Positions 44,312-58,744 of a DNA stretch of 64,000 nt are shown here, one piece after another. This DNA comes from Eledone cirrhosa. Its lineage: Eukaryota. Position 1 is the first letter of the stretch; the number at the start of each line of letters is the position of its first letter. Position numbers and translations under genes: made by a program. The notes under the pieces are model-generated. The model worked only from the letters and a program-made list of their open reading frames with translations, ran no database searches and was not told where the DNA came from. The DNA is taken from positions 10,664,001 to 10,728,000 of the forward strand of contig OZ024761.1 of assembly GCA_964016885.1 (NCBI GenBank). Direction: 5' to 3'.

Positions 44312-46150
44312 TATATACATATACACATATATATATATGTGTATATGTATATGTATATATATGTATATATATATATATGTATATATATATATATATACAT
44401 ATATATATACATATATATATACATATATATATATACATATATATATACATATATACATATATATATATATATATGTATATATATATGTATATATATATGT
44501 ATATATATATGTATATATATATGTATATATATATGTATATATATATGTATATATATATATATGTATATATATATATATGTATATATATATATATATATGT
44601 ATATATATATATATATATATATATATGTATATTATATATATATGTATATATATGTATATATATATATGTATATATATGTATATATATATATGTATATATA
44701 TATATATGTATATATATATATGTATATATATATATATGTATATATATATATATATGTATATATATATGTATATATATATATATGTATATATATATATATG
44801 TATATATATATATATGTATATATATATATATATATATATATATATATATATATATATATATATGTATATATATATATATATATATATATATATATATATA
44901 TATATGTATATATATATATATATATATATATATATATATATATATATATATATATGTATATATATATATATATATATATATATATATATATATATATATA
45001 TATATATATATATATATATATATATTATTATTATGTAATAAACAACATAAGGCAATTATTCCATTTACCAGTGGTTTCTTAAAAGCAAAAGGTTTTGCTT
45101 TCAATCCTCAGAATGAAAAATCCTGGTTTGTTTATTGAATATGGATTCTAAAAACAAAAATGCAATCTATATGAAAGTGAGGCTGGAAAAGGGAGAAGGA
45201 AAGGAAAAATAAAATAAAACTACACATGCAAACACACACAAAAAAACACAAAAGCATACTTACACACACACACATATATACACATATAATTGCACGCATA
45301 CACATATACATATACACATATATATATATATATATATATATATGTAGATAAATCTACCAAGAGTTTACGGTAGTGTCCAATCCGTATGAAGAACTCAATG
45401 TATTCCGGATATCATGGAAAGAAGAGATGTAATGAAAAATCACTTTCGGTGAAAGATAAACGGTATACAGAGTCAAGATAAAATATTAAACAAATAATGA
45501 ATAAAACAATGAAACAGTTCCTTATATTAAACAAAAAAAGTTCATTATTTAACGATCGTTTCTAGGATATATATGTGTTAGAATTGGCATGCATATTCAA
45601 CAGATCTATGTACAAAATTATACAAAATTATACAAACTATCAAGATTAAATATACATACCAAACACACATATACGCCGTCTTCAGAAATAATGAAATATA
45701 TTTATTGATAATAACAACAATTCAAAATTTCAGGTCCGTTTGGGAACAAAATTGACCAATGAAAATACAAAAGGTTTTATGCAGTTTGGTGTGTGTATAT
45801 ACATGTAACTACCCCGTACACATATTTATACAAAGATGTATGCTCAACATGCATACGCATGCCAAAAAGATGCATGCAAATACAAAATTTCAAGGTTAAT
45901 GTCTCTGTAAGTTTATAATGCACAGATAAGATGCGTATAGACACATAAATATGAAATAAGTGTATACACATATTCTCATACTCACACATATCCGTACACT
46001 CACACACACGCGCGCGTATATGCATAAACATACACATAATTACGAACATACATACACACACACACCCCCACACACATATATATATGTGGATATAATATTA
46101 TCATAAGCACATGGATATTAATTCACTCACATAAACACTGCCACACACAT

Positions 46151-48076
46151 TTGAAAAGACCACACTTCAACCTGAAGGATCATAAATCAAACTTTAACTC
46201 AAATCCTTCTATTAGACTTATATGTCCCTCCAAATCAGATATTGGAATAATTAGCATAAAAATTTTGGATAGAGTCATCCCACAAATAAGAAAACACGTT
46301 ATTTTACCACTCTGGGAAAACACCTCCCAGGTAATTAACTGGTTTAAAAATATTAGATGTAAATCTTCTGCTTCATTTCTACAATTTGATATAGATAATT
46401 ACTATTCCTCTATATCACCTATACTCCTGAACAAAGCATTGATATTTGCTAAAAATAGATCTAACTTAACTTTGGATGACATTAATATTATTACACATGC
46501 TAGACTAACACTTATTGAATTTCAGAATGAATACTGGACCAGAAACACATATAGTAATCTATTTGATATTACTATGGGTTCAAGCGATTCCGCCCAAATT
46601 ACTGATCTTGTGGGCCTCTTTCTCCTTTTCAACATAAATGCCTCCTTTCCCCACCTCAAAGGTGGTTTATATCGTGATGACTGTCTTCTTCTTTCTAACA
46701 ACCTTAGCCTTTCAGAAATTGAAAAAAACAAAAAACATATTAGAACTTTCCTTAAAGACTATTATAATCTTCATATTACTTTTGAAAAAACAAGTAAAGT
46801 AGTAAATTTCCTAGATATAACTTTAGATTTAGCTACGGGTATCTACCAACCTTACCATAAACCAAACCAAAACTTACATTACATACACTCACAATCTAAT
46901 CACCCTAAATCTATCCTTAAAAACCTTGCATATAATATATCACTTAGAATTTCTAACCTTTCTTCTAACCAAGATGTGTTTGATAAAAATGCGACCTTCT
47001 ATAACGAAGCTCTAGATAGAAGTGGCCACAAAAATAGATTAGAATATATACCTTCTACTAAAAATACTAAAAGCATACAACCTAATATTACCAACAAACA
47101 CCAAATGAAAAGTACACACCTAAATGCCACCCACACTATACCCCAAAATACCAAATCTTCTAATATAAAATATAGTAACTCTCAAAAAACTACTCATCAT
47201 ACAACTCTAATAAATATTAATAATAAAACTCCTAATAAAAAAGATAAAACACCTAAATCTACAAATATAACTAAAAATGGTTGTGGTGAGATCATTAACA
47301 TTAATCCTCCTAGTAAACATCACGATACAACCTATAAAAATAATAAAAATAATAAACAACATAGAAACCGTAATAGACGGGTTACTTGGTATAATGCTCC
47401 ATTTAATTTACAAATTAAGGATAATATTGCTAAAAAATTTTTTTATATCCTAGAGAAAAACTTCCCGCCAAACCACAAATACCATCAAATCTTAAATAGG
47501 TCTACAGTTAAATTCTCATACTCAACAACAAATAACATAAAACAAAATATAAGTGCCTATAATGCATATAAATGTAAGAAAACCATAAGTATACCACCAG
47601 TACATCAAATTAACCATAATATCTCCTCAAATACAGAATTAACGAAAGGTTGTAACTGTAGAAACAAAGCAAACTGCCCATTAAAAGGGAATTGTCTTGT
47701 TAACAACATAGTCTATAAATGTAATGTTAAAACTAAAGATTCTATTTGCTCATATATAGGAGCTACCTCTAACAATTTTAAGACAAGGTTTAATACCCAC
47801 AAGCATAGTTTTAAAAATGCCGCACTGGCTAATACAACATCTCTAGCAGAAAAAATCAATAGTTATAAAAATAAGAATATAGAATATGATTTGACCTGGA
47901 GTGTGCTCAAAAGAGCCACCCCTTATCAAAATAATAGAAATGAATGTAGATTATGTTCCCAAGAACTATTTGAAATAATGAAATCTAAGGATATCCTATT
48001 AAATAAACGACAGGAATTAATTATATCGTGTAATCATAAACTAAAAAAAACATTTAAATATTATAAACCTAATTAA
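46151..48076 (+). CDS. Penelope-like RT + GIY-YIG endonuclease, 5'-truncated (element A)
   Basis: LKDHK..RLICP, QFDIDNYYSSI, MGSSDSA, YRDD, FLDITLDL, CNCRNKANCPLKGNC, IVYKC..YIG, FKTRF..H and CRLC..E. Confidence 0.92.
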   Translation: MKRPHFNLKDHKSNFNSNPSIRLICPSKSDIGIISIKILDRVIPQIRKHVILPLWENTSQVINWFKNIRCKSSASFLQFDIDNYYSSISPILLNKALIFAKNRSNLTLDDINIITHARLTLIEFQNEYWTRNTYSNLFDITMGSSDSAQITDLVGLFLLFNINASFPHLKGGLYRDDCLLLSNNLSLSEIEKNKKHIRTFLKDYYNLHITFEKTSKVVNFLDITLDLATGIYQPYHKPNQNLHYIHSQSNHPKSILKNLAYNISLRISNLSSNQDVFDKNATFYNEALDRSGHKNRLEYIPSTKNTKSIQPNITNKHQMKSTHLNATHTIPQNTKSSNIKYSNSQKTTHHTTLININNKTPNKKDKTPKSTNITKNGCGEIININPPSKHHDTTYKNNKNNKQHRNRNRRVTWYNAPFNLQIKDNIAKKFFYILEKNFPPNHKYHQILNRSTVKFSYSTTNNIKQNISAYNAYKCKKTISIPPVHQINHNISSNTELTKGCNCRNKANCPLKGNCLVNNIVYKCNVKTKDSICSYIGATSNNFKTRFNTHKHSFKNAALANTTSLAEKINSYKNKNIEYDLTWSVLKRATPYQNNRNECRLCSQELFEIMKSKDILLNKRQELIISCNHKLKKTFKYYKPN

Positions 48077-49060
48077 TAACATTATTTTAGAAATTAATTT
48101 AATTTAAATGTTAGTTAACCTATAAATTTAATTTAATTAAAATTCTACTACAGATGAGAATATAAAATATTGTGTAATCATAAATTGTGAAAAACCTTTA
48201 AATATTACTAATATATACTTAGTAATTTAATTTATAGATTAATTTTAATTTATTTAAACCTTTTATTAAAATTCCTTTACAGATAAAATATAACAAAATA
48301 TCGTGTATCCAATGACAGAGAAATAATTTTTAGTATTATAGACCTAATTAATATACATTTTAGAAATATATTTATAATTTGGTTTTAAATTTAGTCAACC
48401 TAAAAATTTAATTTAATTGGCTTAAAATTAGTATCCTTATACAGACGGATTGCAGAGTGTCATGTAATCATAGAATGGGATGTGTTTTGGATGTATACCT
48501 AGTTAATATATTCTTTGCAATTTTTGAAAAAATATGTATATGTATGTATGTATATGTATGTGTATGTATGTGTGTATATGTGTATATATATATATATATA
48601 TATATATATATATATATATATATATATATATATATATATATATATATATATATATATATATATGTGTGTATGTATATGTATATGTATATGTATTAATTTT
48701 GATTTCTATTTGCATATAATTATATTCTGCTATTGATAAAATACAATATCTGTTTTATTTATTATATACCTAATTAACATATACTATAGAAATTAATATA
48801 TAATTTTTAATTTAGTTAACCTATAATTTATATTCTACTACCGATGTAATACTTTATTTGTTTTTTCCCTATTACTAAATTCATTTCCTAATATTGATAC
48901 CATAACGTTAATAACTTTAATTTAGTTATACTATAATTAATACTCTACTACTATTTAACTTCAAAATTCTGCTTCAAATATTATAAACCTAACTAATTTA
49001 CACCTTAGAAATCAATATGTTAACTATCTTTAGTTTAGTTAACATATAATTAATGGTATA
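48076..49060. repeat. Degenerate AT-rich tandem repeats (about 140 bp) derived from the end of the element A ORF
   Basis: A tgtaatcataaa..aaatattataaacctaattaat..ttagttaacctata motif recurs near 48030, 48173, 48303, 48463, 48770 and 48978. Confidence 0.6.
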
Positions 49061-57709: not shown

Positions 57710-57767
57710 TTCATTCTGAGGATTGAAAGCAAAACCTTTTGCTTTCAAGAAACCGCTGGTAAATGGA
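57710..57767 (+). ncRNA. Type I hammerhead ribozyme (mirror on minus strand at 45060-45117)
   Basis: ttcatt-CTGAGGA (57716-57722), 12-bp stem II ttgaaagcaaaa/ttttgctttcaa, GAAA (57749-57752), cc.gct.g-GTA, then aatgga. Predicted cut after 57761. Confidence 0.85.
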
Positions 57768-58744
57768 ATAATTGCCTTATGTTGTTTATTACATAATAAT
57801 AATAATTAAGCTCTGTTGCCTACATAGAGCACTCTTTTTTCCTGGACTTTTCCGATGGAATTACTTCATTCACACATATATATATATATATATATATATA
57901 TATATATATATATATATGTATATATATATAAATATATATATATATATATATATGTATATATATATATATATATATGTATATATATATATATATATATATA
58001 TATATATATATGTATATATATATATATATATATATATATATATATATATATATATATGTATATATATATATATATATGTATATATATATGTATATATGTA
58101 TATATATATGTATATATGTATATATATATATATGTATATATATATATATATATGTATATATATATATATATATGTATATATATATGTATATATGTATATA
58201 TATATATATATATATATATGTATATATATATGTATATATATATATGTATATATATATATATATATATATGTATATATATATACATATATATATATATATA
58301 TGTATATATATATATATATATATATGTATATATATATATATATATATATATATATATATGTATATATATATATATATATATATATATATGTATATATATA
58401 TGTATATATATATATATATGTATATATATATGTATATATATATATATATATATGTATATATATATGTATATATATATATATATGTATATATATATGTATA
58501 TATATATATATACATATATATATACATATATATATATATATACATATATATATACATATATATATATATATATATACATATATATATACATATATATATA
58601 TATATATATATATATATATATATATATGTATATATATATATATATATATATATATGTATATATATATATATATATATATATATGTATATATATGTATATA
58701 TATATATATATATGTATATGTATATATATATATATATATATGTA

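Follow-up and report, generated by a model that had tools for sequence, protein, structure and literature searches.

Penelope-like elements assigned by sequence features to the Hydra clade, with inverted truncated ends and hammerhead motifs on both strands, in a TA-rich region of Eledone cirrhosa

Penelope-like elements of the Hydra clade are described by an endonuclease located C-terminal of the reverse transcriptase (RT), a DKT motif, a CxCX5C linker, CxxC and CxH motifs, hammerheads, (TA)n targets and the lack of CCHH (Craig et al. 2021; PMC8557442). Naiads are described in the same work by an N-terminal endonuclease, DKA, an IFD, CCHH and the lack of a canonical hammerhead, and the formation of inverted ends by Penelope-like elements is called open. 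Here, a nested complex of such elements is described at positions 45025-57805 of a 64-kb stretch of DNA from the cephalopod Eledone cirrhosa (GCA_964016885.1, contig OZ024761.1, positions 10,664,001 to 10,728,000), which is called the window. The original prediction, made from the DNA letters, had placed the complex in the Naiad clade. Sequence features now assign its two coding elements, A and B, to the Hydra clade.

The nearest described element is Hydra-1_Obim from Octopus bimaculoides (PMC8557442). A and B have in common with the Hydra clade an RT followed by a GIY-YIG endonuclease, CxCx5C, CxxC and CxH, a type-I hammerhead near the 3' end and (TA)n insertion; DKT is seen in B. Compared by eye, one ungapped stretch of the RT has 43 of 63 residues in common between B and Hydra-1_Obim, and B shares the thumb motif SCHPPIVF with this element alone among nine Hydra rows. 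The hammerhead sequences differ from the published ones. A is further distinguished by an insert of ~95 amino acids, a 3.9-kb 3' region and a 116-nt helix II region, and B by two hammerhead ends in tandem. Penelope-13_HM from Hydra magnipapillata (Repbase; File S1/S2 of PMC8557442) has a 5'-truncated inverted copy (nt 1-966) at its 5' end. Like A and B, it combines an inverted truncated copy with a hammerhead on both strands, but it consists of one unit and is not nested. Adineta vaga Pen1-Pen4 likewise have inverted ends, a one-sided tail, junction palindromes, nesting, Asn-rich in-frame inserts and captured spacer DNA ahead of the 3' end; they belong to the Penelope/Poseidon clade and have full pseudo-LTRs and tails of ~31 bp (PMC3846280). 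Naiads share the (TA)n bias, inverted truncated copies and a presence in cephalopods, and are set apart by their own N-terminal endonuclease, DKA, CxC domain, IFD, CCHH and lack of a canonical hammerhead. The layout of the locus is thus ordinary for the Hydra clade, and A and B are two additional families of it.

The assignment builds on domain order and motifs. In the structure model of the A open reading frame (ORF; mean pLDDT 82), residues 1-304 form the RT. Its top Foldseek matches are telomerases (TERTs; E 1e-6), as for a telomerase-related RT; by Z score, TERT (16.8) ties with a group II intron RT (17.2). The insert of ~95 amino acids is rich in N, K and T and of low confidence in the model. 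The C-terminal domain of A, folded alone (pLDDT 94), matched I-TevI (Z 9.5, rmsd (root-mean-square deviation) 2.3, 89 residues aligned), followed by other GIY-YIG nucleases. Foldseek alone gave a weak match (E 0.23), and an Atlas cluster with 31% GIY-YIG scored 0.95. The Pfam GIY-YIG match of A (E 0.006) was below the cut-off. Pfam searches with the whole A and B ORFs gave no meaningful match, and PDB sequence searches gave chance matches or none. For B, the GIY-YIG domain was aligned to that of A by sequence, without a Pfam match. The RT fold and the I-TevI-like C-terminal domain establish the order RT then endonuclease.

The C-terminal endonuclease is present in A and B. B has SDKT in place of DKG, and A is truncated ahead of this motif. 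The CxCX5C linker is found in both elements, and its four cysteines do not vary in any of the 97 aligned rows. CCHH is absent: B has no cysteine between the GIY and YIG halves, and CxxC and CxH flank the conserved E and N in both elements. Canonical hammerheads lie near the 3' ends. Among 186 related proteins, fragments included, 119 have both RW[KR] and DK[TS]. Every Hydra feature that could be checked in the sequence was therefore present. An N-terminal GIY-YIG was found in neither A nor B, and neither has the CX2-5CxxC and CCHH of a Naiad endonuclease. The ~20-aa IFD between RT3 and RT4 was not seen in B, which by eye is collinear with Hydra-1_Obim there. Comparison with reference blocks did not reveal the combination of DKG and CCHH of Neptune, Nematis and Penelope/Poseidon. 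The Penelope-like identity proposed originally was upheld by the telomerase-like RT fold and the GIY-YIG fold, and the proposed inverted arms and hammerheads are real. The CxCx5Cx5C motif ahead of GIY-YIG was also found in both ORFs as proposed, but CxCx5C before a C-terminal GIY-YIG is a signature of the Hydra clade, and the Naiad label had to be given up.

A and B have an RT identity of 48% over 296 aa, and by sequence they represent distinct families. A quick tree was calculated from the RT region (48 rows, 46 of them retrieved relatives, no reference clades). It grouped A with proteins from Octopus bimaculoides (XP_014780528.1) and Argonauta hians (GAB1607445.1) in a separate sub-lineage (SH-aLRT 99). 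XP_014780528.1 is probably misannotated: listed as 'GATA zinc finger domain-containing protein 14-like', it represents a fragment of a Hydra-type RT and contains Asn-rich inserts.

The arrangement was resolved by self-comparison of the window, consisting of a repeat-masked self-BLAST and pairwise arm alignments. In order, the elements are as follows.

45025 to 45342, minus strand: outermost inverted arm of B, piece 3 (mirror of 57485-57804), starting at a TA microsatellite of ~700 bp
45343 to 45477, minus strand: one-sided tail of A, 135 bp, on the inverted copy only, from the arm alignment
45478 to 46152, minus strand: inverted 5'-truncated copy of A (left arm), 674/675 identical to the right arm
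46153 to 48076, plus strand: A ORF, 5'-truncated, with RT (YRDD), insert of ~95 aa, CxCx5Cx5C linker and C-terminal GIY-YIG
48030 to 49080, plus strand: about five degenerate repeats of ~130 bp, comprising the last codons and the proximal 3' untranslated region of A, from pairwise alignments
49250 to 51120, plus strand: microsatellite-rich stretch inside the long 3' region of A, 79% dinucleotide-type repeat
51291 to 51965, plus strand: right arm of A (3' end) with a TA run at its end, from self-comparison
51963 to 52645, minus strand: inverted arm of B, piece 2 (mirror of 56805-57504), from self-comparison
52646 to 53050, plus strand: element C, a short non-coding hammerhead fold-back with 125-bp arms, a 5-nt spacer and a one-sided extension of ~140 bp, related to fold-back D
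53048 to 54015, minus strand: inverted arm of B, piece 1 (mirror of 55853-56829), with a 9-bp gap and a short duplicated snippet where it meets the B ORF
54016 to 55873, plus strand: B ORF, 5'-truncated just before DKT, with RT (YRDD), CxCx5Cx5C and C-terminal GIY-YIG with CxxC and CxH
55853 to 57804, plus strand: right arm of B, 1.95 kb, two related hammerhead-bearing ends in tandem, 56% dinucleotide-type repeat
57805 to 57875, plus strand: one-sided tail of B, ~70 bp, followed by a TA microsatellite of ~870 bp

The arm alignments bore out the claim that the 1.95-kb 3' region of B (55853-57804) is mirrored upstream in three pieces (54015-53048, 52645-51963 and 45342-45023). The inner pair (55853-56829 vs 54015-53048) has 964 matches, 4 substitutions and one 9-bp gap at the junction. 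The second pair (56805-57504 vs 52645-51963) has 673 matches, 9 substitutions and 5 gaps, and the outermost pair (57485-57804 vs 45342-45023) has 317 matches and 3 substitutions. The mirror is broken twice, each time in a (TA)n run, by element A (45343-51965) and by the fold-back C (52646-53050), as had been predicted. The predicted 675-bp inverted arms of A are also real: 51291-51965 and 46152-45478 align without gaps and are identical at 674 of 675 positions. The outer ends of all units adjoin TA runs, hence the (TA)n insertion of the Hydra clade. An inverted terminal structure with an optional one-sided tail, as in Penelope-like elements, is present. The tails measure 135 bp on the inverted arm of A, ~70 bp on the forward arm of B, ~140 bp on C and ~90 bp on D. 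The side differs, inverted arm in A and forward arm in B. Translated in three frames, the tails showed no clear Hydra N-terminus. The inverted pseudo-LTRs of the original prediction were retained in part: the inverted arms exist, but they are inverted 5'-truncated 3' ends, without a direct pseudo-LTR or a 5' end.

The A ORF begins at a KDHK motif, lacks ~190 N-terminal residues of its closest full-length relatives and is open to the stop codon. The forward copy of A reaches 5.8 kb owing to repeats. TRF (Tandem Repeats Finder) did not detect the degenerate ~130-bp repeats of A. The B ORF is frameshifted at a C run (55155-55167); from its truncated start to the first hammerhead, HHR1, B spans ~2.4 kb. 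Promoter and start-codon region are missing and B is frameshifted, so the copies were likely dead on arrival.

The palindrome of C is centred at ~52773 and its arms are identical at 125 of 125 positions. The related fold-back D (41291-41708) has complete hammerheads at +41610 and -41480, 5 substitutions in 152 bp, a 23-nt spacer and a one-sided extension. Animal non-LTR retrozymes are, like C and D, short non-coding units with type-I hammerheads, but they form head-to-tail tandem repeats, whereas C and D are single head-to-head fold-backs (PMC7229834; bioRxiv 10.64898/2026.07.22.740005). Head-to-tail tandem units with a hammerhead each were not found in C or D. Both were plausibly mobilised by proteins of Penelope-like elements.

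With good confidence, the region can be read as a pile of 5'-truncated Hydra-clade copies, each an inverted 3' fragment head-to-head with a forward copy, likely inserted successively into (TA)n runs, including those of earlier copies. TA-targeting elements with TA runs in their own 3' regions offer targets for later insertions and hence become nested. This reading builds on features that were directly observed: the arms with their junctions and TA boundaries, the tails on one side, the order of the domains, the motifs of the clade and the folds of the hammerheads. The formation of the inverted ends may be explained by analogy. A Poseidon-clade protein cuts AT-rich DNA on both strands and extends both; its reverse transcription starts at two adjacent internal sites, which sets the tail (PMC11167929). 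In the Hydra clade, the GIY-YIG domain may nick a (TA)n target on both strands, and reverse transcription would then be primed from each free 3' end, near the 3' end of the element RNA and at one of two start sites. Both complementary DNAs (cDNAs) would stop early and be joined at their ends. Such a copy would have inverted arms, one hammerhead per strand and a tail on a single side, and it would lack the 5' end. We slightly favour such an origin from two cDNAs primed from opposite target strands, truncated and joined. In this reading, the occurrence of hammerheads on both strands is a side effect of the inversion.

Several observations weigh against this account of clade, pile and mechanism. 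The clade assignment consists of motifs and by-eye comparison, and the tree contained no Hydra, Naiad, Neptune or Poseidon references. The region of the RWK motif falls into the missing 5' part of both copies. A has a C-x8-C between the GIY and YIG halves, with cysteines that are not conserved in relatives. Its 3' region (3.9 kb) and the tails of 70-140 bp exceed published values (elements <3 kb, tails of 30-40 bp). Two-ended priming is taken from another clade, Poseidon. Self-priming would better explain the near-equal arms of C and D, whose spacers have 5 and 23 nt, and a single insertion does not account for the uneven arm divergence of B.

This divergence bears on the order of insertion. 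The original prediction had B arriving first, then A and the hammerhead palindrome C. A and C are indeed younger than the outermost arms: A arms have 1 substitution in 675 positions and C arms 0 in 125, compared with 10 in 919 for the outermost arms (p=0.03 for A). Against all B arms pooled, the A arms did not differ significantly (p=0.13). The precedence of B is uncertain since its inner arms are more alike than the outer ones: 3 substitutions in 934 positions vs 10 substitutions and 6 gaps in 919 (p=0.055 for substitutions, 0.0065 for all events). Over 10 dinucleotide tracts, the inner arms show no internal change in repeat length. B may have moved as a single RNA, with read-through of a dead HHR1 to the second related end and later homogenisation of the inner arms. 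Alternatively, the oldest piece may be a ~1-kb fold-back with HHR2, the second hammerhead of the right arm, centred on a TA run. The B core (53048-56829), C and A would then have been inserted later into its TA runs. This second order is possible, although we rate it somewhat below even. The low divergence of the inner B arms agrees with it (some gaps are end effects), as do the matching divergences of A (1/675) and C (0/125) and the location of HHR1 at a normal Hydra distance from the B stop codon. It demands that the B arms end symmetrically ~490 nt past HHR1 without a tail and that a TA run marks the exact centre of the older fold-back. The same pattern would also follow from a single B insertion with a 3'-transduced second end, for which G17 in HHR1 would permit read-through, if the closest arms underwent gene conversion or consensus polishing that was halted by the insertion of C.

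Self-priming may also have produced the inverted arms: one cDNA or an antisense template would fold back and be copied, a route suggested for Penelope elements of rotifers. C and D form almost perfect palindromes around short spacers, and the 9-bp skip and short duplicated snippet at the B junction resemble a template jump. Junction palindromes were read in this way in A. vaga (PMC3846280). The inverted arm of A carries 135 bp that are absent from the forward copy. Copying of a forward cDNA cannot supply them, unless the forward end was trimmed later. Self-priming is therefore kept as a tentative explanation, with a probability of about one third.

The hammerheads were located with a type-I descriptor. 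It had been loosened after a stricter version missed motifs of A and C and was hence tuned on these matches. Within 45025-57805, seven complete motifs were found (+51758, +52859, +56297, +57716, -45111, -45685, -53580); 300 block-wise dinucleotide shuffles gave one match (mean 0.003). An eighth motif at -52687 is partial, with core, helix II and GAAA, followed by TA. The predicted number of eight, four per strand with one partial, was thus reproduced. They represent four distinct motifs and their mirror images.

45059 to 45118, minus strand: mirror of HHR2, core 45111, GUA cleavage triplet
45541 to 45695, minus strand: mirror copy of the A hammerhead, core 45685, found by the descriptor
51748 to 51902, plus strand: type-I hammerhead of A, 10-bp helix I, 116-nt helix II region, palindromic helix III, GUU triplet
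52646 to 52695, minus strand: partial hammerhead of C, core 52687, ending at GAAA-TATA
52851 to 52916, plus strand: complete hammerhead of C, core 52859, found by the descriptor
53529 to 53586, minus strand: mirror of HHR1, core 53580, G at position 17
56291 to 56348, plus strand: HHR1, the native 3' hammerhead of B, ~420 nt past the stop, G at position 17
57709 to 57768, plus strand: HHR2, complete, core 57716, in a region 83% identical to the HHR1 region over 87 bp

The strict descriptor missed the motifs of A, C and D and gave one match inside a Helitron-like ORF (+24982), which the final descriptor dropped. Rfam detected none of the eight at gathering score, and none was among the best 150 of 223 weaker matches; the weak matches listed were microsatellites against microRNA models. 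By minimum free energy alone, the short hammerheads fold no better than shuffles (z +0.2 to -1.6), and their support is hence the descriptor and not the energy. Both copies of HHR1 (+56297 and -53580) have a G at the cleavage position. By established rules, a hammerhead with G at position 17 should not cleave. Metazoan Penelope-like hammerheads cleave poorly alone and are probably active as dimers (PMC4209133), and a Poseidon-clade hammerhead cleaves only with the protein (PMC11167929). Two further solo type-I hammerheads lie on the minus strand beside TA runs (40144-40172 and 63507-63541) and are probably 3' ends of other Penelope-like families.

The predicted hammerhead of A combines a fully paired helix I of 10 bp with a GUU triplet; a C-A mismatch lies at the helix base. 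The 116 nt between core and GAAA fold into 44 predicted pairs, 7 of them G-U. The sense strand folds far better than shuffles (z -6.4, 0/200) in comparison to the antisense strand (z -2.2, 9/200), which suggests a structure at the RNA level. The evidence comprises a single sequence together with its mirror. Across 30 motifs of related loci, the helix II region has 11-31 nt, although the descriptor allowed 140, and published Hydra motifs are similarly short (PMC8557442 supplement). A long-helix-II hammerhead of Penelope-like elements, or this locus, was not reported in the literature searched, with most subscription papers, Repbase and Dfam outside its scope. New here are the 116-nt strand-specific helix II region of A and the inner arms of B that appear younger than the outer ones.

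The arm geometry has consequences for any RNA. The paired arm amounts to ~2.75 kb per strand. Duplexes of a hammerhead with its mirror arm are predicted at -83 to -251 kcal/mol, compared with -6 to -48 kcal/mol for the self fold. The kb-long double-stranded RNA (dsRNA) of the original prediction agrees with this geometry, provided that the region is transcribed: a read-through RNA would be a dsRNA of ~2.75 kb with masked ribozymes, in which each hammerhead is likely trapped by its mirror copy and would not cleave. That the locus actively supplies long dsRNA, which is diced or which ADAR hyper-edits, and that these families are silenced in this way, is plausible but unlikely, at about one chance in four. 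Apart from the geometry, lizard Penelope repeats are heavily edited, octopus dsRNA potential and hyper-editing are exceptional (PMC5625713), and antisense small RNAs arise from rotifer Penelope copies (PMC3846280). Neither the A nor the B copy has a 5' end or promoter region, and the search for host exons gave none that would put the locus inside an intron. The arm differences (7 A/G vs 4 C/T) show no significant A/G excess (p=0.55). More speculatively, and at still lower probability, A may represent a recently mobile cephalopod Hydra lineage. Its G-U-rich helix II of ~44 bp would be under selection at the RNA level and long enough to serve ADAR as a substrate or the RT as a docking arm, and host editing or the protein would gate self-cleavage. 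The tail sides of A and B would then be a footprint of the two-ended reverse transcription that explains the inverted ends.

Related loci were found in assemblies labelled bacterial (15 loci, 7 of them in one assembly) and searched with a slightly laxer hammerhead descriptor. They are probably animal DNA contamination; contamination carrying such elements in prokaryotic assemblies has been reported (PMC8557442). Four of the 15 have hammerheads on both strands. In one (L006), arms of 758 bp, 100% identical, surround a truncated ORF with a hammerhead on each strand. Another (L003) has 8 hammerheads, 4 per strand, in 10.3 kb, and fold-backs between TA runs. By eye, the motif of L007 matches the published Hydra-2_aMil hammerhead. 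No hammerhead match was obtained in four of the 15 loci (contigs of 1.1-6.5 kb), nor in L012 (8 kb). That the arms are assembly fold-back artefacts is very improbable: arms up to 99.9% identical and rich in microsatellites are known to trouble assemblies, but substitutions and unequal repeat lengths distinguish the arms, two insertions interrupt one of them, spacers measure 1.8-5.1 kb, one-sided tails stand beside the hammerheads, and the same layout occurs in independent contigs. A Naiad identity, which would agree with (TA)n insertion, inverted copies and the occurrence of Naiads in Octopus, is hardly tenable given the C-terminal endonuclease, DKT in B, the lack of a conserved CCHH and the presence of hammerheads; it was rejected on the domain order, RT then C-terminal GIY-YIG.

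The complex is flanked by a directly repeated 324-bp 3' end of a long interspersed nuclear element (LINE; 43988-44311 and 58750-59073, 1 substitution). They represent a local duplication or, alternatively, two insertions into TA that are both young. The flanking LINE has an RVT_1 ORF on the minus strand (58826-60346) and is presumably CR1-like. A second LINE RT fragment (61298-62788, minus strand, RVT_1 E 6e-32) has long TA runs at both bounds. A Helitron-like element (20776-27453) encodes Rep, a PIF1 helicase, DUF6570 and a ubiquitin carboxyl-terminal hydrolase domain and is broken by stops and frameshifts. A unit with 209-bp inverted repeats (30793-31001 and 31533-31741, 99.5% identical, 530-bp spacer, no hammerhead) has the appearance of a non-autonomous DNA transposon. 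Exons of two tandem paralogues, which we take to resemble sarcosine/pipecolate oxidase, are located on the minus strand at 1000-16500. The first coding exon of the upstream paralogue was not found in 16.6-64 kb; it is either lost, diverged or beyond the window, and in the last case the complex would be intronic. A U6 small nuclear RNA copy was detected by Rfam at 7072-7176 (minus strand, 94 bits).

The main gain is a corrected label; the striking layout is routine for Hydra-clade elements. Two families are added to a little-studied clade, and they were apparently recently mobile. In Octopus vulgaris, 336 recently active Penelope-like insertions in 31 families have been reported (PMC13282606). 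Young copies with one-sided tails are useful test material for the formation of inverted ends. If transcribed, such arms would increase the dsRNA load that underlies hyper-editing in cephalopods, a role in which inverted repeats are already known.

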